Assembly (NCBI GenBank): GCA_045599485.1
Contig: JAZRWA010000024.1
Location: forward strand, 1 to 15,881
Length of the DNA: 15,881 nucleotides
Origin: Clostridia bacterium
Lineage (GTDB): Bacteria > Bacillota > Clostridia > Christensenellales > Aristaeellaceae
Direction: 5' to 3'
The notes below the pieces were generated by a model. It saw only the letters and a list, made by a program, of their open reading frames with translations, did not search any database and was not told where the DNA came from. The position numbers and the translations under genes were made by a program. Positions 1-14,872 of the stretch are shown here, one piece after another; positions within the stretch are counted from its first letter, which is position 1; each line of letters begins with the position of its first letter.

Positions 1-2876
1 TCCTTCAAAGCCGTCTCGTGCGCCAGGCGGGTCACGCTTGTCTTTTGCCGGTGATGCAGCTTTGCGGATGGGTGCATACGGCGCAAAAACTATTCGTTAA
101 AGTCAGTATCCAAGGCAGGAAGCACAACAGGATGGTCACCGGGCAGCTCTTGATGGTATTCGCTTTCATCGTGAAAACGCACGTCCCACAGGCTGCCGTT
201 GAGGGCGGTGTACAGCTGATCGCGGTTGTCGGTCAGTGCGGGCTCGATGGCCTGTCCCACCCATTCCAGCATGCTGGTGGCACAGCCGCTGGCATAATCG
301 CCGGGCGGCAGGCGCCATTTTTTGCGGGCGCTGTCCAGCGACTTGGGGCTGGCCAATAGGATAAGGCGGTCGCGGGCGCGTGTCATGGCCACATAGAGCA
401 GGCGGGCTTCCTCGGCGCGGTCCTCACGGGCGGCACGCTCGGCAATGGCACGGCCGCCCAGCGTCTGGTCGGCAACACGTTCTTCGGCATCCACCCATTT
501 GAGGGAAAGCCCCAGCTGCTGATCGATGCGCAGCGTATCGCCGCTGCGCGCGCCGCGGAAGGCTCTGGCCATTTCCATGACAAACACCACGGGGAATTCC
601 AGTCCCTTGGTTTTGTGGATGGTCATGATGCGAACCACATCGTCCTTTTCGCTCAGCTCTTTGGCGGTCGTTTTATCCGAAGAATGCAGGGCGGCCTCGG
701 AATTGCGCAGAAAATCAAACAGGGAATAGCGTGCCCCCTCATCCTGTGCCCTTTCACACAACAGGCGCAGGTTCGCCTGACGGATGCGGCCGTCCCTTTC
801 GGCCCCGGCGAGGGCGTAAATACCCGTTTCGCGCAGCAAATGGCGCAAAAGGGCGTCCACCGTCATCTGGTCGGACAGAAAACGCCATCGATCCAGTGTG
901 TCCAGCACGTGGGCGATGTCGGGCTCAGTCTCGCGCAGGGCAAAGATGCCTTCGTACAAATGGGCATATTTTGCGCAATTCTGGCTGATTTCCGCCAATC
1001 TTTCGGAAGAAAAGCCAAAGCAGGGCGTACGCAGGGCGGCAAGCAGCGGCAGATCCTGATAGGGGTTATCCAGCACGCGGATGAGGTTGACCATGTCCTC
1101 CACCTCGCGCTGCTCGTAAAAGCTGGCGTCGGCATCGCTGAAGCAGGGAATGCCCTCGTTTTGCAGGATGCGGGCAATGGTCTCACTGCGGCCGCTGGCC
1201 TGACGGACCAGCAGAACAAAATCACGCCACTGCAGCTTGCGGTTTTGATACGGCTGCCCCACCAGCTGCTTGATGCGGCGCGCCGCCTGCTGTGCCTCGT
1301 ACATCCAGCCGCGGGTCAGCTCTTCGTTTTCGGCGGAGTCCTCGGAGGGCTTTTCTTCCCCATCCTTCTTTTTGACACCACCGATGAGGTGCAATTCGAC
1401 CGCGGGGCCCATTTCAGCGTCGCTGCGGGCGTTCAGCTCGGCATCCTTGTCATAATCCAGCTCAGCACTGCGCAGCGAGGCATCGGGTGTACCGGTTTTG
1501 CGCATGGCGCGCTTGAACACGCAGTTGACGGCATCCAGTATGTTTTTGTTGGAACGGAAGTTCTGGGACAGCACGATCTTACGCTCGGTGCCGTCCGCTT
1601 CCTTGCTGAAGCTTTCGTATTTGCCCAAAAACAGCGAGGGATCGGCCTGACGGAAGCGATAAATGGATTGTTTGACATCGCCGACCATAAACAGGCGGTT
1701 GCTTTCGGTATGGATCATGCGGACGATGCCTTCTTCAATGCCGGACACGTCCTGATATTCATCCACAAAGATCGCGTCATAGGAGGCGGCGACCTCGGCA
1801 CGGACACGGTCATCCTTCAATGCTTCGATGCACAGATGCTCAAGATCGTTATAATCCATCAGACCGCGCTGACGCTTGAACGCGGCATAGCGATCGGCAT
1901 AGTTGTGCACCAGACGGCACAGGGCGTTGGCCGGGGCCACGGTATCGGCGATACGGGATGTTTCCGACGCCAGATCATAGGAGACCAGCGCTTGCGCCTT
2001 TTTGAAGCAGTCCTTGGCTTCCTCACGAAAATCGGTATAGATCTGTTTGGCGGCAGGGTCGGGGGCGTTTTTCTTGGTAGCACGGGTCAGCGTGGCAAAC
2101 TTCAGCTCCTGGATGCTGTTCATGGCGCGCACGGACGCCATTGCTTCACTGATCAGGTCAAAATCCGCTTTGCAGCTGTCGGTGTACAGGGCAAGACTTG
2201 GATGGATCGCCAGCTGCGCTTCCATCTGCTCGATATAGGCGCGCGCGCCCTCCAGCTGCATCAGCGCTTCCTTGGCAAAGATCAGCTGCAGCGAGCGGAG
2301 AGAGGCAGGGTCGGTGGACGGCTTGTGCGTGTCGAGCCATTCCCACGGCTCCGGCTGCATCATGATAAAGCCGTACAGCTTTTCCGCCATATCGACGATC
2401 TCTTCATCCTCAAACTGCGCACGCAGCAAGCGATCTTCCTCCTAAGAAGAAGCACACATCTGCTCCACGGCTTCGCTCAGGGCTCGCAGGCGCAGAGGCG
2501 CCAATTGCGGGTCGGAGCCGATGCGGGCGTTGGGGTCGGCTCCGCACGCCTGAAAGTGCGTTTTGATGACATTGTGGCAAAAGACGTGCAGGGTGCTGAT
2601 CTGCGCGCGCTTCAAGGAGCGAAGCTGCTCCCGCATATGACGGTTCTAAGCGGCTTCTGCATCCAGAGCCCGTTCCATTTTGTCACGGAGCTCGGCGGCC
2701 GCGGCGCGTGTAAAGGTAATGATGAGAAAACGGGTCACTTCGCCGCCCGCGCGCAAAAGGCGCAGCACGTGCTCGATCAATACTGTGGATTTACCGCTGC
2801 CTGCGGCCGCGCTGACCAGCGTATCGTGGTTATCCGCTTCAATGGCCTTCAGCTGATCTTCTGTCCAAACGCGCAC
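1..2876 (-). CDS. addA: AddA/RecB-type UvrD-family (SF1) ATP-dependent helicase-nuclease. The 3' end runs off the window. The frame carries three in-frame TAG codons (2646-2648, 2442-2444, 90-92).
   Basis: Track ORFs 2646..2945, 2442..2636 and 90..2429 share one minus-strand frame (2945-2636=309 and 2636-2429=207, both multiples of 3). They are separated only by single TAG codons (plus-strand cta). The frame stays open past a third TAG at 90-92 for 29 more codons to the window edge (FLRRMHPSAKLHHRQKTSVTRLAHETALK). SF1 motifs occur in order across the pieces: Walker A AAAGSGKST (piece 1); ISTLHVFC (piece 2); VDEYQD, MVGDVKQSIYRFR, QNFRS, MTIHKTKGLEFPVVF and LYVAMTRARDRL (piece 3). The layout, and the K-x-S-V-T motif after the third TAG, resemble B. 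subtilis AddA as I recall it. The likely start is GTG at 2876 (MRVWTEDQLKAI), 6 nt after GGAGGG (2883-2888). The MFHVKH extension in the track is translation of the parS palindromes. No addB-like gene lies upstream. Confidence 0.8.
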
Positions 2877-2891
2877 AATGATCCCTCCGAT

Positions 2892-2907
2892 TGTTTCACG
2901 TGAAACA
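2892..2907. promoter_or_regulatory. parS: parS site (ParB/Spo0J centromere-like binding site), copy 1
   Basis: Perfect 16-bp palindrome TGTTTCACGTGAAACA, extending to the 18-bp palindrome TTGTTTCACGTGAAACAA at 2891-2908. It matches the Firmicutes parS consensus tGTTNCACGTGAAACa. It lies in the intergenic region between addA and csoR. Confidence 0.8.
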
Positions 2908-2928
2908 ATGGCCTTATGCAAACCGCAA

Positions 2929-2944
2929 TGTTTCACGTGAAACA
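2929..2944. promoter_or_regulatory. parS: parS site (ParB/Spo0J binding site), copy 2
   Basis: Second perfect TGTTTCACGTGAAACA, within the 18-bp palindrome ATGTTTCACGTGAAACAT at 2928-2945. It lies 37 bp (start to start) from copy 1. Confidence 0.8.
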
Positions 2945-2963
2945 TTTTTCACGCAAATCGAAT

Positions 2964-3002
2964 GTTATATAATAGGATATAACTGTTTCAACAAAATGTC
3001 AA
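2964..3002 (-). promoter_or_regulatory. Candidate sigma-A promoter(s) driving addA, upstream of both parS sites
   Basis: Two candidates on the minus strand in an AT-rich tract. One is TTGAAA (2986-2991), 16 nt, TATAAC (2964-2969). The other is TTGACA (2997-3002), 17 nt, TATCCT. Either would place the parS pair in the addA 5' leader. Sequence match only. Confidence 0.3.
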
Positions 3003-3008
3003 CAAGGC

Positions 3009-3037
3009 TTGACAAATACGGGGGTGGGGTATAGAAT
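3009..3037 (+). promoter_or_regulatory. csoR promoter
   Basis: TTGACA (3009-3014), 17-nt spacer, TAGAAT (3032-3037), about 33 nt upstream of the csoR ATG. Confidence 0.6.
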
Positions 3038-3066
3038 GGACATCGAAAACATACCCCCGGGAGGTA
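3016..3066 (+). promoter_or_regulatory. Two candidate CsoR operator boxes (G/C-tract pseudo-palindromes flanked by ATAC/GTAT)
   Basis: Box 1 is ATACGGGGGTGGGGTAT (3016-3032) and fills the -35/-10 spacer. Box 2 is ATACCCCCGGGAGGTA (3051-3066); TACCCCCGGGAGGTA matches its own reverse complement at 12 of 15 positions, and it overlaps the RBS. Both resemble the TACCC-N-GGGGTA type CsoR operators known from Bacillus, Listeria and Staphylococcus. This is an inference from resemblance. Confidence 0.4.
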
Positions 3067-3069
3067 AAG

Positions 3070-3375
3070 ATGAAAATGAAAGAATGCTGCTGCGCGGCAC
3101 GCACCACCGAGCGTGACGCTGCCGAAAAAAAGAAGCTGCTGGACCGCCTCAGCCGTATTGAAGGTCAGATCCGCGGCATCCGCGCCATGCTGGAAAAGGA
3201 TGCCTATTGCGCCGATGTGTTGACCCAGTCGGCCGCGGCCCGGTCGGCGCTGGATGCCTTCAATCGGCAGGTGCTCAGCCGCCACATCCATACCTGCGTG
3301 ATGCAGGACATGGCCGAGGGCAAGGCGGACGCGCCCGATGAATTGTGCGAACTGATCCTGAAGTTGGTCAAATAA
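3070..3375 (+). CDS. csoR: CsoR-family copper-sensing transcriptional repressor
   Basis: The 101-aa product carries the DUF156/CsoR core LLDRLSRIEGQIRGIRAML. The C-H-C Cu(I) ligand pattern is present (YCADVL ... HIHTC). GGAGG lies 6 nt upstream of the ATG. The stop is TAA. The N-terminal tail contains ECCC. Confidence 0.9.
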   Translation: MKMKECCCAARTTERDAAEKKKLLDRLSRIEGQIRGIRAMLEKDAYCADVLTQSAAARSALDAFNRQVLSRHIHTCVMQDMAEGKADAPDELCELILKLVK

Positions 3376-3394
3376 TGTATAAAATGGTAAATAC

Positions 3395-3423
3395 TTGACA
3401 ATTACAAACATTGTGTCTATAAT
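3395..3423 (+). promoter_or_regulatory. Consensus promoter immediately upstream of copA
   Basis: TTGACA (3395-3400), 17 nt, TATAAT (3418-3423). The spacer contains the small palindrome ACAA-N3-TTGT. No terminator lies between csoR and copA. Confidence 0.6.
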
Positions 3424-3441
3424 GAAAGAAAGAGGCAAACA

Positions 3442-5940
3442 ATGAAGCAATATCATGTAACGGGGATGAGCTGTGCCGCCTGCTCCGCCCGCGTGGAAAA
3501 AGCGGTCAAGGGCGTGCCCGGGGTGACGGAATGTGCTGTCAGCCTGCTGACCAACTCCATGGGCGTGGAAGGAACCGCCTCAGACGGCGACATCATCCGT
3601 GCGGTGACGGAGGCGGGCTACGGCTGCAGCCCCAAGGACGGAGGCAGTACCGCAAAAAGCGCCGCGTCCTCCGTGGATGAACTGACCGATACCGAAACGC
3701 CGAAAATGATCCGGCGTTTGATCGCCAGCCTGTGCCTGCTGCTGCCGCTGATGTATGTTTCCATGGGCGGCATGATGTGGGGCTGGCCTGTTCCCTCCCT
3801 GTTTGCGGGCAACGGCCTTGCCGTTGGCATTTATGAAATGCTTCTGGCAGGTCTGGTCATGGTCATCAACCAGAAGTTTTTTATCAGCGGCTTCAAGGGA
3901 CTGATCCACAAAGCCCCCAACATGGATACACTGGTGGCCATGGGCTCGTTTGCCTCGTTTGCGTGGTCGGTGGTGACGCTCTTCCGCATGACGCTGCCGG
4001 GCGCGATGCCGATGCATCTGCTGCACGACCTGTATTTTGAGTCGGCGGCCATGATCCTGACCCTCATCACCGTGGGCAAAACGCTGGAAGCGCGCAGCAA
4101 GGGCAAGACGACGGACGCGCTCAAGAGCCTGATGAAGCTCTCTCCCCGCACCGCGACCCTGGAAAGGGACGGAAAACAGGTGACGGTGCCCATTGAAGAG
4201 GTGCGCCCCGGCGATATCTTTGTATTGAAGCCCGGCGACAGCGTGCCGGTGGACGGCGTGATCGTGGAGGGCAGCGGCTCCCTCAATGAAAGCGCGCTGA
4301 CGGGCGAGAGCGTGCCTGCGGACAAGACGGTGGGCGACCGTGTCAGCGCCGCCACCATCAACCTGAACGGCGCGCTGCGCTGCCGGGCCGAGCGCGTGGG
4401 TGAGGATACCACGCTGGCGCAGATCATTCGCCTCTGCTCGGATGCCGCAGCGACCAAGGCCCCCATCGCGCGGCTGGCGGACAAGGTCAGCGGTGTGTTT
4501 GTGCCCGTGGTGCTGGGCATTGCTGCGGTGACGTTTATCATATGGCTGCTGCTGGGCGAAAGCACGGGCTTTGCGCTGGCAAGAGGCATCAGCGTGCTGG
4601 TCATCTCCTGCCCCTGTGCGCTGGGCCTGGCAACGCCGGTCGCTATCATGGCGGGCAGCGGCGTGGGTGCCAGGAACGGCATTCTGTTCAAGACCGCGGC
4701 CTCGCTGGAGCGGGCGGGACGGACGCGCGTGGCGGCGCTGGACAAGACCGGCACCATCACCGAGGGCGTGATGAGCGTGACCGATGTGCTGCCCGAAAAC
4801 GGCAGCGAGGAGGCGCTTTTGAAGCTGGCGGCCTCTTTGGAGGCGCGCAGTGAGCATCCCGTGGGCCGCGCCGTTGTAAAAGAGGCCGAAAAACGCGGCA
4901 TCATGGCCGAAAGCGTGACCGATTTTGCCGCGCTGCCGGGCAAGGGACTGATGGCGCGCCACGCCGGCGGCAAGCTGGTGGGCGGCAGCGTCAGCTACAT
5001 TGCGGAAGTGACCGAGCTGCCCGGGAACGTGAAAAAACAGGCGGAAAGGCTCTCTGACGAGGGCAAAACGCCGCTGTGCTTTGCCTTGGAGGATCGCTAC
5101 ATCGGCATGATCGCTGTGCGGGATACCCTCAAGAGCGACAGCGCGGAGGCCATCAAACAGCTGAAAAACATGGGCGTGCGCGTGGTGATGATCACGGGCG
5201 ACAATGCCCGCACGGCGGCCGCCATGGCCAAAGCCGCGGGGGTGGACGAGGTGCTTTCCGGTGTGCTGCCCGACGGCAAGGAAGCCGCCGTGCGGAGCCT
5301 CAAAAAGTACGGCCCTGTCATGATGGTGGGCGACGGCATCAACGATGCCCCCGCCCTGATCAGCGCCGATGTGGGCGCCGCCATTGGCGCGGGCACCGAT
5401 GTGGCCATTGACGCCGCCGATATCGTACTGATGAAGAGCAGCCTCAGCGATGTGGCGGCGGCCATCCGCCTGTCCCGCGCGACGCTGACCAACATCCGCG
5501 AGAACCTTTTCTGGGCGTTTTTCTACAACGCGGTGTGCATTCCGCTGGCCGCCGGTGCGTTTATCCATTGGACGGGCTGGCAGATGAGCCCCATGCTGGG
5601 CGCTGCCGCCATGAGCCTTTCCAGCTTCTGCGTGGTGAGCAATGCCCTGCGCCTCAACCTGATCGATATTCATTCCCCCAGGCATGATCACCGTCTGAAG
5701 GGCAAGGCGCCTCAAACGACCGTGCTGGAGCTGGAAGTGGAGGGCATGATGTGCCACCACTGCGAGCGGGCGGTATCCGAAGCGCTGTCGGCGATCGACG
5801 GCGTGGTGGACGCCTCCGCCGATTTTGAGACCGGTAAGGTCCTGCTGACCTGCGTAAAACCCATTCCGGAGCAGGTGCTCCGCCAAGCCATAGAGGAGGC
5901 GGATTATGCCCTGCTGTCCGTAAAAGAACAGGAGAAATAA
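3442..5940 (+). CDS. copA: Copper-translocating P1B-type ATPase with N-terminal and C-terminal HMA metal-binding domains
   Basis: The 832-aa product has an N-terminal HMA domain (GMSCAACSARVE), the TGES motif (LTGESVP), the transmembrane CPC motif (SCPCALGLATP), DKTGTIT, MITGDN and VGDGINDAP. A second HMA domain sits at the C-terminus (VEGMMCHHCERAV). AAGAGG RBS. The stop is TAA. Confidence 0.95.
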   Translation: MKQYHVTGMSCAACSARVEKAVKGVPGVTECAVSLLTNSMGVEGTASDGDIIRAVTEAGYGCSPKDGGSTAKSAASSVDELTDTETPKMIRRLIASLCLLLPLMYVSMGGMMWGWPVPSLFAGNGLAVGIYEMLLAGLVMVINQKFFISGFKGLIHKAPNMDTLVAMGSFASFAWSVVTLFRMTLPGAMPMHLLHDLYFESAAMILTLITVGKTLEARSKGKTTDALKSLMKLSPRTATLERDGKQVTVPIEEVRPGDIFVLKPGDSVPVDGVIVEGSGSLNESALTGESVPADKTVGDRVSAATINLNGALRCRAERVGEDTTLAQIIRLCSDAAATKAPIARLADKVSGVFVPVVLGIAAVTFIIWLLLGESTGFALARGISVLVISCPCALGLATPVAIMAGSGVGARNGILFKTAASLERAGRTRVAALDKTGTITEGVMSVTDVLPENGSEEALLKLAASLEARSEHPVGRAVVKEAEKRGIMAESVTDFAALPGKGLMARHAGGKLVGGSVSYIAEVTELPGNVKKQAERLSDEGKTPLCFALEDRYIGMIAVRDTLKSDSAEAIKQLKNMGVRVVMITGDNARTAAAMAKAAGVDEVLSGVLPDGKEAAVRSLKKYGPVMMVGDGINDAPALISADVGAAIGAGTDVAIDAADIVLMKSSLSDVAAAIRLSRATLTNIRENLFWAFFYNAVCIPLAAGAFIHWTGWQMSPMLGAAAMSLSSFCVVSNALRLNLIDIHSPRHDHRLKGKAPQTTVLELEVEGMMCHHCERAVSEALSAIDGVVDASADFETGKVLLTCVKPIPEQVLRQAIEEADYALLSVKEQEK

Positions 5941-5943
5941 ACC

Positions 5944-6702
5944 ATGAACATGAATCAGCGCCGCGAAAGGATCGTGCAGCTTGTCAACGGCGGGGGCTCG
6001 GTGAGCTTTTCCACCCTGAAAAAGGAGTTTCCTCAGATATCGGAAATGACCCTGCGGCGCGATCTGGAGTATCTGGATCAGAACAGGCTGCTGATCCGCA
6101 CGCATGGCGGCGCGCGCAGTGTGGAGGTGCTGGTGGGCACGGATGACCTTTTGCCCCGCCGTACACAGCGCAACGCGCAGGAAAAGCAGCAGATCGCCGT
6201 CAAGGCGGCGCAGCTGCTGCAGGCGAACACGACGGTGTTCCTCGATTCCGGCTCCACCTGCACCGAACTGGCCCGGGTGTTTCCCGATGGACCGTACATG
6301 ATCTTTACCACCTCGGTGGGCTGCGCGGTCGATCTGGCGCGGCTGCAGCAGCCGCAGGTGCATATGCTGGGCGGCGCACTCAATGCCAGCTCACTGTCCG
6401 TCAACGGCGCCGCGACGCTGGAATGGCTGAATCATATCAATTTTGACATCGCGTTCATGGGCGTGACAGGGTATATTCAAAACCGCGGCTTTACCTGCGG
6501 CAGCGAGGAGGAATGCGCCGTCAAGCGCGCCGTCATTCAGCGCGCCGACCGCGTGGTGCTTTTGATGGATGCCAGCAAGGTGGGCGTGACAAGCACGTTT
6601 ACCTTTGCGGATGCCGACCGTGTCAGCATTCTGGTGACGGACGGCCTGCTGGACGAAAAGACCGAGCGGCACTTTGAAGCCTGCGGCATACAGGTGTTGT
6701 AA
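5944..6702 (+). CDS. DeoR/GlpR-family transcriptional regulator
   Basis: The 252-aa product has an N-terminal HTH (FSTLKKEFPQISEMTLRRDLEYLDQNRLLIRTHGGA) and a C-terminal DeoR sugar-binding-type domain (VFLDSGSTCTELA, DIAFMGVTG). The ATG lies 3 nt after the copA TAA, and AGGAGA lies inside the copA 3' end. The stop is TAA. Confidence 0.85.
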   Translation: MNMNQRRERIVQLVNGGGSVSFSTLKKEFPQISEMTLRRDLEYLDQNRLLIRTHGGARSVEVLVGTDDLLPRRTQRNAQEKQQIAVKAAQLLQANTTVFLDSGSTCTELARVFPDGPYMIFTTSVGCAVDLARLQQPQVHMLGGALNASSLSVNGAATLEWLNHINFDIAFMGVTGYIQNRGFTCGSEEECAVKRAVIQRADRVVLLMDASKVGVTSTFTFADADRVSILVTDGLLDEKTERHFEACGIQVL

Positions 6703-6865: not shown

Positions 6866-7513
6866 TTAATCCCATGTTATATGCATATACTTTTCAGTTG
6901 ACTCAAGGTAACGTTTAGCTCCTATCAGATATCCCAAATCATGCAGCCGCTTTCTTTGCATTTCAGTTTGAGCGGTCATGGTATGCACAAACATCGTTTC
7001 ATCGGGGATATATAATCCTCCGTATGTTGCGATTTGCAGTATTGGCAAGTGATATTTGTCTGAATACCCAATGTATTCGCCGTAGACTTCAACCGGAATG
7101 TTTTCAAATCCGTCAAACACAGTTTGATTTTTTTCATATCCCGGATTACTTCCCACAAAGATACCGTTTTGCTTCAGAGCGTAAATAACAATCCATTCAT
7201 TATTGTTTTCGTCGGTGATGCGAAATGCAAAAAGATCATCGATTCTAAAGTACTGAGTTATGGAACCATAAATTGCAATTAACCGTTCTTCAAAACGATC
7301 GTTCCAGTTATCAAAGTAGGTTTCATAATCAACGTGCATAAATGGAATAATGCTTTCACCACGCTGGGCTTTATCGATGATTGCCTGAGCTTCTGAGGGA
7401 TTATATCCCAATGCAAGCATTTTGCCGTAATTCAACGTAACTGTGCTTTCACTGTCAGCCAAACAATTTGAGACGAGCAGAAAGCAGATGATGGTCAACA
7501 GAACTTTCTTCAT
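6866..7513 (-). CDS. Hypothetical secreted protein encoded in a low-GC islet; no family recognised
   Basis: Track ORF 6866..7528. The preferred start is the second ATG (7513, MKKVLLTIICFLLVSNCLADS), with GGAGG 8 nt upstream. The N-terminus is a typical signal peptide. Sampled 60-nt lines inside are 37-43% GC, against about 65-68% in the flanks. The stop is TAA. Confidence 0.65.
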   Translation of the reverse strand: MKKVLLTIICFLLVSNCLADSESTVTLNYGKMLALGYNPSEAQAIIDKAQRGESIIPFMHVDYETYFDNWNDRFEERLIAIYGSITQYFRIDDLFAFRITDENNNEWIVIYALKQNGIFVGSNPGYEKNQTVFDGFENIPVEVYGEYIGYSDKYHLPILQIATYGGLYIPDETMFVHTMTAQTEMQRKRLHDLGYLIGAKRYLESTEKYMHITWD

Positions 7514-7629
7514 AGTAAAAACCTCCATCGCATTACGAGACTAATAAATCAGTTCGTCAAAAATGCAACTATTCCTTCTGCACAAACAAAGTTGGTGATA
7601 GTTTTTTGCGCGTGTCTGAGAAGTTATTA

Positions 7630-7701
7630 GATTAAAACAGCCCTTTCTCGGGTGGGGTTTGGGGCGACCATGCTTTCAGGCTCTGAAAGCGTGGTCGCCC
7701 C
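7630..7701. repeat. Right copy of the inverted repeat flanking the low-GC islet; contains the hairpin that would terminate the EamA gene
   Basis: Hairpin GGGGCGACCATGCTTTCAG (7661-7679), loop GCT, CTGAAAGCGTGGTCGCCCC (7683-7701). It is preceded by AAAACAGCCCTTTCTCGGGTGGGGTTT. The reverse complement matches 6712-6788. Confidence 0.7.
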
Positions 7702-9750: not shown

Positions 9751-9784
9751 GGCTTGTTTCCTCCATAATAGATGTTCGGCAAAG

Positions 9785-9814
9785 ATTATAGCACAGGTTG
9801 GGGTAAAATGTCAA
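9785..9814 (-). promoter_or_regulatory. Promoter of the DUF362 gene
   Basis: On the minus strand: TTGACA (9809-9814), 18 nt, TATAAT (9785-9790), with an extended -10 TGC immediately upstream. Confidence 0.55.
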
Positions 9815-9840
9815 AGAACAGGCTTTGCGCGGCCCTCTGA

Positions 9841-9877
9841 CAACAAAGAAGCGGCAGGGTTTTTGACCTTGCCGCTT
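9841..9877 (-). terminator. Probable terminator downstream of hup
   Basis: Minus-strand RNA AAGCGGCAAGG-TCAAAAA-CCCTGCCGCTT (one mismatch), followed by CTTTGTTG. Confidence 0.45.
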
Positions 9878-9895
9878 TGGAAGCGTGATGGGAGA

Positions 9896-10241: not shown

Positions 10242-11531
10242 TTAATTTTCGCTTGTCAAGGCTTTTTCTGTTTCTTCTGTCCGCGAAACAAGGACAGTTA
10301 CGGCGCGCTGCAGCTCTTCCTCGGCGGACTTTCCCTCGCGGCGCAGACGGTCGACCAGCAGCAGAAGCTCCTTTTGCGGGTTGTTTTCAACAAGGTCGGC
10401 GATGTTGTCGCCGTGCGCCTGAAGCTTTTTGAGCACCTTCTCCGCCCGGAGCAGAGCGGGCAGCGACAGCGACACGGCGCGCAGCGTATCGGCAAAGCCG
10501 GCGGTGCCGCGCTCCCGCTGCTTGACCTTTTCCCAGTTGAGAAGGACCTCGTCGGCGGTGCCGCAATGCACATCGCCGAAGATGTGCTCGTGACGACGTA
10601 CCATTTTGCTGACGATGCCGCTGGTGACGTCGGACAGCTCAAAGGTGCCGTACTGCGCCCCGATATCGGACTGGAACACGATCTGCAGCAGCACATCGCC
10701 CAGCTCGTCCGCCACGTGCTCCCAATCCCGCTCACTGACCGCCTGCGAGACCTCGTAGGCTTCCTCAATCAGATAGCGGGAAAGCGTGTCATGCGTCTGC
10801 TCCCGGTCCCACGGGCAGCCGTTTTGCCCCCGCAGCAGCGCCATTACACGCACCAGATCGTAAAAATCATGGCGTTCGCGCGCCTGCACCGGGGCGGGCG
10901 GCAGGTAGAGCGCGGCGGTGTGGTCGTACTTCTTTTGACGGTCCATCTCCCACAGGGGGATGCGCACGGCTTCACGGTGCGCCCGGGACGTGGGCGGGAA
11001 GAACAACACCTCGGTCTCATCGCCGTACCACGGGGTGAGCTTCAGCTTGCATTCGCCCGCCAGATAGGGCGTGTTGAGCTCGGTGATGAGGAGCCCTCCC
11101 TGTGTGTCGGTCACCTCCAGATCGGTGGCGCTGACCACACGCATGGCCCCGCGCGCCTGCGCCGCCTGCAGCAGCGGCGCGGAAACGGGCATGCCGCCTT
11201 CGATGATGATATCGCCGGGGTGCTTTTCGCACAGCGCCTGCACGGTGGTGTCGGTCAGGGCATCCAGCACGGCATACACGGCCTTGCCGCGGGCAGCGGC
11301 CTTTTCGACGGCAGCCACGGCGGCGGCGGTGAATTCGTCAAAATCCTACGCGGACTCGTGCAGGGCATCCAGAGAGGTAAAGGCAATGCCCTGTTCGGCA
11401 AGGTACTTGCCCGCGTCGGTCAGCGCGGTGCGCAGCACCAGGCGTTTGGCGGTTTTGAGGGTATCGAGCACGCCCAGGGTGAGGTGCTCACGCGGGCCGG
11501 GGCCCAGGGAAACGACGGTCACGGAATGCAT
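10242..11531 (-). CDS. yabN: YabN-like fusion protein (N-terminal tetrapyrrole-methylase-family SAM methyltransferase domain plus MazG NTP pyrophosphohydrolase domain); contains one in-frame TAG at 11346-11348
   Basis: Track ORFs 11346..11648 (real start ATG 11531, MHSVTVVSLGPGP, RBS GAGGAGG) and 10242..11318 are in the same frame (11348-11318=30). They are joined by TAG plus 9 sense codons (...LDALHESA-TAG-DFDEFTAAAVAAVEK...). The MazG core is present downstream (GCPWDREQTH, EEAYEV, ELGDVLLQIV, RRHEHIFG). The gene order flippase-yabN-hup matches the yabM-yabN neighbourhood of Bacillus and Clostridia. The final stop is TAA. Confidence 0.85.
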
Positions 11532-11541
11532 GGGTTCCTCC

Positions 11542-13149
11542 TCAGCGTTTGACAAAGCGTCGCAGACGGCCGGGAACATCCTCGGGGCGGATGGCCTTGA
11601 TCGCAAAGGCGAGCAGCGCGTAGACGGCAATGCCTGCCAGAATGGCAACGGCCACGGCGATCAGCAGCAGGAAACGGCCGCCGGTGAGGCATTTTTCGGT
11701 AAAGAGCACGTACCAGATGACGTATACGATGGCCCCCATGGCCACGGTGGCTGCCAGCGGGCGCAGAAGGATATCGGTCACGGGGAAGCGCTTGGAAGCG
11801 TAGCGGACGACAAAATACAGGTTGGGCACCATCGACACGGTGTAGCACACCAGCGAGGCGATGGGCGCGCCGTGAATGTTGATGGAGGGCGTGCCGATGA
11901 GCAGATAGTTGAGGCCGATCTTGCAGATCACACCCGCCAGCAGCGTGTACAGCGGCAGGCGCTGCTTGCCGCAGCCGTGCAGGATACCGCTGGTGGCCTG
12001 CACCATGGTAAAGAAGAAGATGGTAAAGGCACTCATCTGCAGGATCTGCGCGCCCAGATCGAGCTGCGCGGGGGTGTATTTAGCGCTGAAGAGCAGGTAC
12101 AGGATGGGGCGGGCGAGCAGGCTCATGCCCATTGAACAGGGCATGCCCACAATGGAGGCGATGCGCATGCCGTCAATGCTCTGACGGGATACATCCTTCA
12201 TGTCATGGCGTGCCATGCCGGCGGAGATGGCGGGCACCAGATTGGTGCTCATGGCCATGGCCAGGGCGGTGGGCACGTTGATGAGCGACAGCACCACGCT
12301 GGAGTACAGACCGTAGCGCACCAGCGCCTCGGCGTGCGCCATGCCGTCGGCTTCCATCAGGTTGGTGACCATGAAGCTGTCGATCCACCCGGCCAGGGGC
12401 ACGATGCAGCTGGACAGCGTGATGGGAATGGAGATCTTGAGCAGCGTTTTGACCAGCTGGGCGGTTTCGGGCGCGGGCTCGGTGCTGTTTTGCGGTACGG
12501 CGGCAAACTCCCCGCCGGCGCGGCGGTGGGCAATGCCCATAAAGACAAGCGCGGCGCCCTCGGCCACACTGGTGCCCAGCAGCATGCCCGCGGCGCCCCC
12601 GGGCGCGCCGCCCAGGTTCATGCCCGCGACGGCCATGGGCAGGGCGACCGCCAGCTTGCCCACCTGCACGATGAGCTGGGAGATGGCGGTGGGCATCATT
12701 TTGCGATGTCCCTGCATGTAGCCGCGGTAGGCGCTCATGACGCACACCAGCAAAAGCGACGGCGCGATGGCGAGGTAGCCGATGCGGATCTCGGGCGCGC
12801 CGGCCTGATTGGACAGCCAGCCGCTGAAGATGACCAGCAGCAGCGTGGCCAGCAGGCCCAACGCTGTCAGCCCCCATGCCGCCAGCCTGAACACGCGGCG
12901 GGCGGCGGAGGGATCCTGTCGCGTGACATAGTGCGCCACCATGCGGGAGATGGCCACGGGCAGACCGGCAGAGGAGATGGTCAGCAGCAGGTTATAGCTC
13001 TGGAACACCTTGGAATACAGACCCAGCCCCTCGGCCCCGATGTAGGCGGCCAGCGGAATGCGGTAGAGCACGCCGACCACCTTGCAGATCAGCCCTGCAA
13101 GCCCCAGTATGGAGATGCCGCCGACCAGCGATTTGGTTTTTTGAGACAT
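11542..13149 (-). CDS. MOP-superfamily flippase (SpoVB/YabM/MurJ-like polysaccharide or lipid II flippase)
   Basis: Track ORF 11542..13209. The preferred start is ATG 13149 (MSQKTKSLVGGISILGLAG), with GGAGGA upstream. The roughly 535-aa polytopic membrane protein has SpoVB/MurJ-like N-terminal motifs (YRIPLAAYIGAEGLGLY, LPVAISR). The stop is TGA and overlaps the yabN RBS. Confidence 0.8.
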   Translation of the reverse strand: MSQKTKSLVGGISILGLAGLICKVVGVLYRIPLAAYIGAEGLGLYSKVFQSYNLLLTISSAGLPVAISRMVAHYVTRQDPSAARRVFRLAAWGLTALGLLATLLLVIFSGWLSNQAGAPEIRIGYLAIAPSLLLVCVMSAYRGYMQGHRKMMPTAISQLIVQVGKLAVALPMAVAGMNLGGAPGGAAGMLLGTSVAEGAALVFMGIAHRRAGGEFAAVPQNSTEPAPETAQLVKTLLKISIPITLSSCIVPLAGWIDSFMVTNLMEADGMAHAEALVRYGLYSSVVLSLINVPTALAMAMSTNLVPAISAGMARHDMKDVSRQSIDGMRIASIVGMPCSMGMSLLARPILYLLFSAKYTPAQLDLGAQILQMSAFTIFFFTMVQATSGILHGCGKQRLPLYTLLAGVICKIGLNYLLIGTPSINIHGAPIASLVCYTVSMVPNLYFVVRYASKRFPVTDILLRPLAATVAMGAIVYVIWYVLFTEKCLTGGRFLLLIAVAVAILAGIAVYALLAFAIKAIRPEDVPGRLRRFVKR

Positions 13150-13606: not shown

Positions 13607-14194
13607 TTATAGGCTGTGATGCGGGAAAAGAGCTTCGTAATCCTTCCTCAGGATGGCAAACAGATACACATCGCGGTACTGTCCCTTGCTGTAGACGCGG
13701 CCGCGCAGCAGCCCCTCCCGGGTCATGCCGCATTTTTCCATCACACGGCCGGAGGCGGGGTTGCGGGGATCGTGCATGGCTTCCACCCGGTTGAGACGCA
13801 GCTCTTCAAAGCTGAAGCGCAGCAGCGCGCCGAGCGCTTCGGTGGCGTAGCCGCGGTTCCATACATCCCGGGCGAGGGAATAGCCGATCTCGGCACAGTG
13901 GCTGTCGCAGTCGATGCAGCTGAAGCTGACGGTGCCAAGGACGCGGTGATCCTCCTTGCGCTCAATGGCCAGGCTGCCGGGCAGCCCCAAACGGTACTGG
14001 CGCCTGAGGCGGCGGATGTAAGCGCGCGTTTCGGCGGGCGAGGCGTGCGCCTTGAGCGGTTCAAAGCGGCTGACCTACGGATCGCCGTAGCAGCGGAACA
14101 GATCGCGGCTGTCCTGCATCGTGACGGGGCGCAGCACCAGCCGCGGCGTCTCGACCTCGGGCAGCAGGCGAAAAACACGTCGGTAATCCTGCAT
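13607..14194 (-). CDS. RimJ/RimL-like GNAT N-acetyltransferase with one in-frame TAG at 14075-14077 (codon 40)
   Basis: Hand translation from ATG 14194 (RBS AGAGG) gives MQDYRRVFRLLPEVETPRLVLRPVTMQDSRDLFRCYGDP-TAG-VSRFEPLKAHASPAETRAYIRRLRRQYRLGLPGSLAIERKEDHRVLG.... This runs in frame into track ORF 13607..13990 (14194-14077=117 and 14194-13990=204). The N-terminal piece is the canonical first strand and helix of Acetyltransf_3-type GNATs. The acetyl-CoA motif WNRGYATEA lies after the TAG. The final stop is TAA. Confidence 0.8.
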
Positions 14195-14212
14195 AAAGGA
14201 AACCTCTTGATA

Positions 14213-14241
14213 ATTATCCCATATTCAGGGAAAAAATGCAA
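14213..14241 (-). promoter_or_regulatory. Promoter of the GNAT / TIGR03905 / small-ORF operon
   Basis: On the minus strand: TTGCAT (14236-14241), 17 nt, GATAAT (14213-14218), with TGG (an extended -10 TGn) just upstream. Confidence 0.5.
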
Positions 14242-14254
14242 TCGATAAAAAATT

Positions 14255-14872
14255 TTACAACGGGCGGGATGCCAGCACCCTTGTGGGCCGTTGTATAGTA
14301 GAAAGCCCTTCATAGGGCGCGGCGGTCTGCTGCAGGGCGCGCTGCGCCAGAAGCAGGCCCACGATGGTCTTGCTGTCGCGGATCTCTCCGTTCAGGATCA
14401 TGCCCACGGCGTCGGAAAGCGGCAGGGAGGCGATGTTCAAAAACTCGCCCTCATCGGGGTGCGTTTCGTGGGCGGTCAGCCCCGTGGCCAGATAGATGCC
14501 GATGTGTTCATCGCAAAAGCCGGGCGTGGTCAGGATATCGCTGAGCAGCGTCCAGTTTTCGGCCATGAGGCCGGTCTCCTCGCTCAATTCGCGCTTGGCG
14601 GCGTCGAGGGTGCTTTCGCCCTCCTTGTCCAGCTTGCCGGCGGGAATTTCCCACGTGAAGCGGTGATTGACCACACGGTGCTGGCGCACCAGGGTGACGC
14701 AGCCGTTTTCGTCCACGGGCACCACGGCGGCGGCGCCGTGGTGACGCACCACCTCGCGGGGGGCTGTGCTGCCGTCGGGCAGGCGCACCTGCCAGCGTTC
14801 CACGTTGATGATCTTGCCTTCAAAAATGGGTTCGGAGGAGAGAAAGACCTCCTCCAGTCTGCTGTCGTCCAT
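14255..14872 (-). CDS. nudF: Nudix hydrolase, ADP-ribose pyrophosphatase type
   Basis: The 205-aa product has the Nudix box GKLDKEGESTLDAAKRELSEETGL and a NudF-like N-terminus (EPIFEGKIINVERWQVRLPDG). GAAGGAG RBS. The stop is TAA. Confidence 0.85.
   Translation of the reverse strand: MDDSRLEEVFLSSEPIFEGKIINVERWQVRLPDGSTAPREVVRHHGAAAVVPVDENGCVTLVRQHRVVNHRFTWEIPAGKLDKEGESTLDAAKRELSEETGLMAENWTLLSDILTTPGFCDEHIGIYLATGLTAHETHPDEGEFLNIASLPLSDAVGMILNGEIRDSKTIVGLLLAQRALQQTAAPYEGLSTIQRPTRVLASRPL

Follow-up and report, generated by a model that had tools for sequence, protein, structure and literature searches.

In a narrow lineage of uncultured Clostridia from the herbivore gut, sampled from horse faeces and related gut material, UAG probably no longer terminates translation and instead specifies an amino acid, Glu being the likeliest. 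The stretch of DNA under study, in full 15,881 nucleotides and hereafter called the window, contains five in-frame TAG sites, one each in a YabN-like gene and a GNAT gene and three in AddA; close relatives add four more, in AddA and PrmC. The total is thus nine distinct sites in four housekeeping genes, collected from the window and six sister contigs that derive from at least four independent datasets. Every one of these sites is a TAG, with neither TAA nor TGA among them, and no indels or frameshifts are present. The occurrence of these codons in several conserved genes, the purifying selection acting 3' of them and the exchange of TAG with GAG and GAA between strains make it very probable that TAG is read as sense in this lineage. 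The TAG of the YabN-like gene, from which the analysis starts, is best accounted for as one manifestation of a codon whose meaning has changed across the lineage.

The YabN-like gene and its TAG codon

The first-pass annotation described an ATG at 11531, a run of 61 codons, a TAG at 11346-11348 and a frame that continues beyond it; this arrangement is confirmed on the minus strand, with the following features.

10242 to 11531, minus strand: YabN-like gene read through TAG; 429 codons, TAA end, one continuous NCBIfam YabN match
11537 to 11543, minus strand: Shine-Dalgarno sequence GAGGAGG, 5 nt 5' of ATG 11531, invariant in sister contigs L001 and L011
11346 to 11348, minus strand: codon 62 of the YabN-like gene, an in-frame TAG where homologues conserve Glu
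11271 to 11522, minus strand: TP_methylase-like domain, aa 4-87, which spans the TAG (PF00590, 28.7 bits, cutoff 27.8)
10578 to 10799, minus strand: MazG nucleotide pyrophosphohydrolase domain, aa 245-318 (PF03819, 2.1e-23)
11316 to 11318, minus strand: GTG start of a 358-aa protein in the standard-code annotation (P0369); equals Val72 within the continuous alignment, start not conserved

The gene opens with GAGGAGG-N5-ATG, where the Shine-Dalgarno sequence shares bases with the TGA that ends the upstream MurJ/SpoVB-like gene. The N-terminus encoded from ATG 11531 is MHSVTVVSLGPGP..., and the 61 sense codons 5' of the TAG read MHSVTVVSLGPGPREH...LHESA; after the TAG the frame resumes with DFDEFTAAAVAAVEK... 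and runs for 367 in-frame codons to the TAA at 10244-10242. The 429-aa product, with X placed at the TAG, was used as query for Pfam and NCBIfam, and gives a single match to NCBIfam YabN_Meth_PPase (NF052436) over aa 4-375 (5e-88), which crosses the TAG; the proposal of one methylase-MazG gene is thereby borne out. The score of 296 bits lies below the curated equivalog cutoff of 525 and the match covers positions 1-386 of the 486 in the profile, the low score being due to the presence of a single MazG repeat. As in Bacillus subtilis YabN, which belongs to the same family, an N-terminal TP_methylase-like domain is fused to MazG and the gene follows one for a SpoVB/MurJ-like flippase; the protein of the window differs from it in having one MazG domain only. 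About 120 homologues of 420-480 aa, the length range in this Clostridia group, show the same architecture without interruption.

The TAG had been assigned to a variable acidic or polar stretch, and on this point the first-pass annotation has to be corrected, since in an alignment of 48 homologues the column contains Glu in 43 and Asp in three, and it is flanked by the invariant His58 and by the invariant Asp63/Phe64. Chance does not account for the arrangement, and the codon itself is not peculiar to the window. The same TAG is found at codon 62 in two more independent assemblies, L001 (a horse-faeces MAG contig) and L011 (an ENA contig), whose products are 94% identical to that of the window at the amino acid level, with dS of about 0.3 and with differences in neighbouring codons that are mostly synonymous. 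Sister strain L017 has GAG instead, and its gene differs from that of L011 at only 20 of 1290 nucleotides, indicating that the two spellings interchange like synonyms. A sense codon such as GAG at this position could be taken as a sign of a misread base; here it likely identifies the amino acid rather than exposing an error. dN/dS values, calculated according to Nei-Gojobori for the window against L001 and L011, are 0.08-0.19 upstream of the TAG (codons 1-61), 0-0.03 immediately after it (codons 63-90) and about 0.10 over the downstream part as a whole (codons 63-429); the values for codons 63-90 imply that the stretch just 3' of the TAG is constrained as protein in this frame.

A restart of translation at GTG 11318 can be discarded. 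This codon is the first in-frame start 3' of the TAG and no purine-rich Shine-Dalgarno sequence precedes it; it lies inside the continuous alignment, as had been noted, and the Val72 codon, GTG in the window, is GTC in both L001 and L011, while Val75 is GTC in L001 and GTG in L011. The downstream starts chosen by database gene callers vary from strain to strain (V72, V75, V84, V87), none of them has a Shine-Dalgarno sequence, and a two-gene arrangement with a real start was not seen in the relatives. The earlier view that the downstream piece lacks a start and a ribosome-binding site of its own therefore holds. Concerning local signals, a segment of 131 nt around the TAG and 3' of it has a fold no more stable than that of shuffled sequences (z = 0.64), which leaves no PYLIS- or SECIS-like structure 3' of the codon, and the region gives no match in Rfam. 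By these comparisons the YabN-like gene is neither erroneous nor dead; in all probability it is one intact gene of 429 codons, and codon 62 would be a rare codon for Glu, written TAG.

Other genes with in-frame TAG codons

That the TAG is genuine, as first proposed, is upheld. The event is not confined to the YabN-like gene: in-frame TAGs also occur in the AddA and GNAT genes of the window and, in sister strains, in those for AddA and PrmC, which places the cause in a changed reading of TAG in the lineage. The relevant genes and sites are listed below.

1 to 2876, minus strand: AddA-like helicase-nuclease gene, GTG start at 2876, GGAGG at 2888-2884; 958 codons in the window, running off its edge
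2646 to 2648, minus strand: AddA TAG, codon 77 (site AddA-100); TAG in the window, TCG (Ser) in L012
2442 to 2444, minus strand: AddA TAG, codon 145 (site AddA-168); TAG in the window, TTG (Leu) in L012
90 to 92, minus strand: AddA TAG, codon 929 (site AddA-958); shared with L012, L018 and the horse MAG, i.e. all clade members seen; Glu in outgroup L014
Site AddA-847: TAG in L012, GAG in the window and L018
Site AddA-988: TAG in L012, GAA in L018
Site AddA-1111: TAG in L012 and L018, Glu in outgroup L014
13607 to 14194, minus strand: GNAT (Acetyltransf_3) gene, 195 codons, one TAG read through, TAA end; the Pfam match, aa 18-158, spans the TAG
14075 to 14077, minus strand: GNAT TAG, codon 40; GAG (Glu) in L001, L011 and outgroup L013
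Site PrmC-202: TAG in L018 (gene 2430-3260), L019, L020 and the horse MAG, GAA in L012

The AddA gene starts with GGAGG-N7-GTG, and its product aligns to B. subtilis AddA (3u44_A) over 26-879. Its 958 codons within the window include three TAGs (first bases 2648, 2444 and 92) and no TAA or TGA. The L012 ortholog, 92% identical, has 1250 codons, a TGA end and four TAGs, located at codons partly other than those of the window, and L018 has two TAGs in the C-terminus of the protein. The window and L012 can be compared over 958 codons with no indel, yielding a dS of 0.605 and a dN/dS of 0.068, where each segment between TAGs is at or below 0.14; for the C-terminus, L012 against L018 gives a dN/dS of 0.097.

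PrmC, the release-factor glutamine methyltransferase, has its TAG at the invariant Glu202 of the EP motif. In the strains with this TAG the gene is annotated as two proteins of 201 and 72 aa (MCQ2453938/9 in the horse MAG), split at the TAG; the tail 3' of the TAG shows a dN/dS of 0.15 between L012 and L018. Overall, the segments 3' of TAGs in the YabN-like gene, AddA and PrmC have dN/dS values of 0-0.15 at dS 0.1-0.6, and by this measure all three are functional genes, translated through TAG. No in-frame TAG is present in the outgroup orthologs of YabN, AddA, PrmC and GNAT.

Choice of the longest ORF and a stop-codon census based on GC3 proved unreliable, because antisense ORFs are long in high-GC DNA; program gene calls and Pfam-checked genes were used instead. 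A plus-strand ORF at 3..2903, with an in-frame TAG of its own, was dropped as the antisense of AddA. The minus-strand ORFs 2965-3456, 3580-6363 and 13741-14313 are spurious as well, the last of them offered by the standard ORF list and overlapping the real GNAT gene. Searches for additional material gave no further clade members in a JGI metagenome scan with AddA and no match in exact look-ups of four window proteins; a pattern scan of IMG/VR returned a single contig, L021, from an unrelated phage, as a chance match on the antisense strand.

Just upstream of the AddA start, the 16-bp palindrome TGTTTCACGTGAAACA occurs in two perfect copies (2892-2907 and 2929-2944), against 0.01 expected by chance, and one copy is found at the same place in L012 (1671-1686). 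It may be an operator, and it accounts for the 'MFHVKH' and 'VSRET' N-termini of some database AddA calls.

Amino acid assignment, decoding and competing explanations

The nearest sense-codon relative encodes Glu (GAG or GAA) at seven of the nine TAG sites, and Ser and Leu at the other two, AddA-100 and AddA-168, both of which lie in variable columns; Gln, Lys, Tyr and Trp are found in the nearest sense relative at none of the nine. Between strains TAG exchanges with GAG (YabN, AddA-847, GNAT), with GAA (AddA-988, PrmC-202) and with TCG and TTG (the two AddA sites in variable columns). Besides the YabN position, TAG occupies near-invariant Glu columns in AddA (103 of 119 homologues) and PrmC (28 of 28). 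This distribution is not expected from codon usage, since GAG and CAG account for 2.75% and 2.85%, respectively, of the 5026 codons of the window, and among the sense codons that differ from TAG by a single base GAG represents 20%; even with a share of 27%, the probability of at least seven Glu sites out of nine is 0.002. The double differences between GAA and TAG in very close strains are compatible with a neutral path through GAG. Taken together, the seven of nine sites on which the assignment rests, the near-invariant Glu columns and the path via GAG designate Glu as the best assignment, and it is fairly likely that Glu is the amino acid read at TAG.

The 13 complete genes of the window end in TAA (10) or TGA (3) and none in TAG, and no TAG-terminated gene was seen among the other genes on clade contigs. 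The outgroups behave likewise, and the lack of TAG ends is thus not peculiar to the clade: in the nearest ones, L013/L014 (JGI 3300020112, 68-71% identity), no gene out of 13 ends in TAG, and in the more distant L015 only one of 19 does. The 13 genes of L013/L014 are also free of in-frame TAGs. TAG may already be almost unused in this sister lineage, as codon capture would predict. As for the decoding apparatus, ARAGORN, applied to the window and every clade contig (approximately 45 kb), found no tRNA gene, and hence no suppressor tRNA, nor did Rfam on 44 kb. A release factor 1 (RF1) gene next to prmC was considered as a clue and given up: prfA is adjacent to prmC neither in the clade (L012, L018) nor in the outgroups (L014, L015), and being unlinked in this group it makes the prmC loci uninformative on RF1.

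The mechanism can be outlined only in conditional terms. UAG would be decoded by a Glu-charged tRNA whose anticodon, CUA, is one base away from the CUC of tRNA-Glu, and RF1 would have been lost or weakened; the change could have come about by codon capture, in a group that already made little use of TAG as a terminator. Somewhat more likely than not, this would be a natural bacterial code in which UAG would specify Glu via a tRNA-Glu(CUA), with RF1 lost or disabled, limited to a young herbivore-gut Clostridia lineage where TAG, at about 0.1% of codons in a genome of about 60% GC, would still be spreading as a rare synonym of GAG.

Among the alternatives, a lineage-wide translation of TAG as something other than Glu, such as Gln as in code 15 phages, pyrrolysine, or a mixture of near-cognate residues following RF1 loss, shares all the evidence that TAG is read, and two of the sites do align with Ser and Leu; moreover, the AddA-847 column has Q in 7 of 119 homologues, and in RF1-deleted E. 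coli UAG is read by near-cognate tRNAs. It is nevertheless unlikely, since Gln, Lys, Tyr and Trp are not aligned with any of the nine sites, even though CAG is as common as GAG and its change to TAG is a transition, since TAG is kept at three near-invariant Glu columns, and since the two-step differences between GAA and TAG suit a synonymous route. Pyrrolysine in particular finds no PYLIS-like fold after the YabN TAG; the TAGs seen are located in housekeeping genes unrelated to those for methylamine methyltransferases. Under the standard code TAG would terminate and the genes would be split or decaying, with a 61-aa peptide and a reinitiated MazG protein from the YabN locus. The annotation under table 11 is indeed in this form, giving 61 plus 342-358 aa for YabN, two pieces for PrmC and fragments for AddA; this explanation is improbable, however, because nine interruptions out of nine are TAG, an outcome with a probability of (1/3)^9 for three equally frequent stop types, no indels accompany them, and dN/dS is 0.03-0.15 right 3' of the TAGs, ahead of any possible restart. 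Furthermore, the candidate restart codons vary between strains and lack a Shine-Dalgarno sequence, PrmC would be cut within its catalytic domain at the invariant EP motif, and AddA would fall into four or five pieces.

A gene-specific, programmed read-through of the YabN TAG, in which local context or structure would give regulated short and long products, could draw on the identity of the TAG and the next 20 nt in three strains. It is very improbable when the TAGs in three other genes with unrelated contexts are considered, together with the lack of significant structure and the plain GAG of L017. A sequencing or assembly error, or contamination of the contig by a TAG-recoded phage, has in its favor only the prior probability of such events, MAG contigs being at times chimeric, and is scarcely credible: the same TAG appears in independent NCBI, ENA and Logan assemblies, the affected genes have housekeeping roles, lie on the chromosome and are in synteny with outgroup MAGs that use the standard code, and the residue aligned with TAG is Glu and not the Gln of such phages.

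Relation to known genetic codes and further observations on the window

All known bacterial reassignments of stop codons concern UGA (PMC8629427; bioRxiv 2026.04.02.715157), and three genetic codes are counted in Bacteria (bioRxiv 2024.09.30.615893). A 2026 screen of 2.7 million assemblies reported no bacterial TAG reassignment (bioRxiv 2026.04.02.715157), though one MAG of this clade is public, and no report of TAG reassignment in bacteria was found in the literature examined. The UGA codes, namely code 4 (UGA to Trp, in Mycoplasmatales and some endosymbionts) and code 25 (UGA to Gly, in Gracilibacteria/Absconditabacteria), resemble the present case in the lineage-wide conversion of a stop into a sense codon, in the single type of in-frame stop found in conserved genes, and in the new tRNA and the loss of the matching release factor that are expected. 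They differ from it since they involve UGA and RF2, mostly in genomes that are reduced or low in GC; in the present lineage UAG is the codon, RF1 would be the factor, the genome has about 60% GC and the amino acid is apparently Glu.

Gut phages of the code 15 type (crAss-like and Lak, with TAG read as Gln) share the use of TAG as sense and the gut environment; conversely, they carry suppressor tRNAs and recode mostly late genes, whereas in this lineage the TAGs fall in housekeeping genes of the chromosome, and Gln is aligned with none of the nine. UAR codons are read as Glu in some eukaryotes, i.e. code 30 of peritrich ciliates and code 31 of Blastocrithidia, where UAG is read by a tRNA-Glu with a changed anticodon. 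These are nuclear codes in which UAA is reassigned too, while here TAA is still the main terminator (10 of 13 genes). The archaeal Pyl code (bioRxiv 10.1101/2024.09.30.615893) is likewise prokaryotic, and its TAG is not a terminator and occurs in frame in ordinary genes; it is archaeal and needs pylTSBCD, whereas the residues aligned here are Glu. By the features compared (no PYLIS-like fold, chromosomal genes, no Gln), the lineage would represent neither a Pyl nor a phage case.

If the proposed reading is true, this would be the first cellular bacterium reported to have reassigned UAG to one of the standard amino acids, such changes having so far been known in phages, organelles, eukaryotes and, as Pyl, archaea, and it would extend the list of bacterial codes to a free-living gut Clostridium. 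It would also offer a young natural codon capture, in which TAG is rare and polymorphic with GAG and GAA between strains, and a parallel in nature to the recoded E. coli strains from which RF1 has been deleted; phages infecting these cells would meet a host that reads through amber codons. Under table 11 the genes of the lineage are mis-annotated as truncated or split, as for MCQ2454236, MCQ2453943 and MCQ2453938/9, and genome quality and coding density would be underestimated.

Some additional features of the window and of the sister contigs deserve mention. Between about 6600 and 7800 the GC content drops to 44-45%, against about 60%; this low-GC island includes a minus-strand ORF (6866-7528) for a lipoprotein-like product of 220 aa with no Pfam match. 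In sister contig L011 the interval from the EamA gene to the DeoR gene lacks the island, which is probably a recent insertion. In L011 a His_Phos_1 (phosphoglycerate mutase-like) gene at 6074-6691 lies between the HU and DUF362 genes, and the corresponding part of the window (9751-9895) is devoid of it. Finally, a GC-rich element containing a hairpin (GGGGCGACC...GGTCGCCCCAAACCC...) recurs at intergenic positions in the window (about 7650-7700), in L011 (8821-8837) and in L018 (5538-5554), and resembles a REP-like or terminator repeat.
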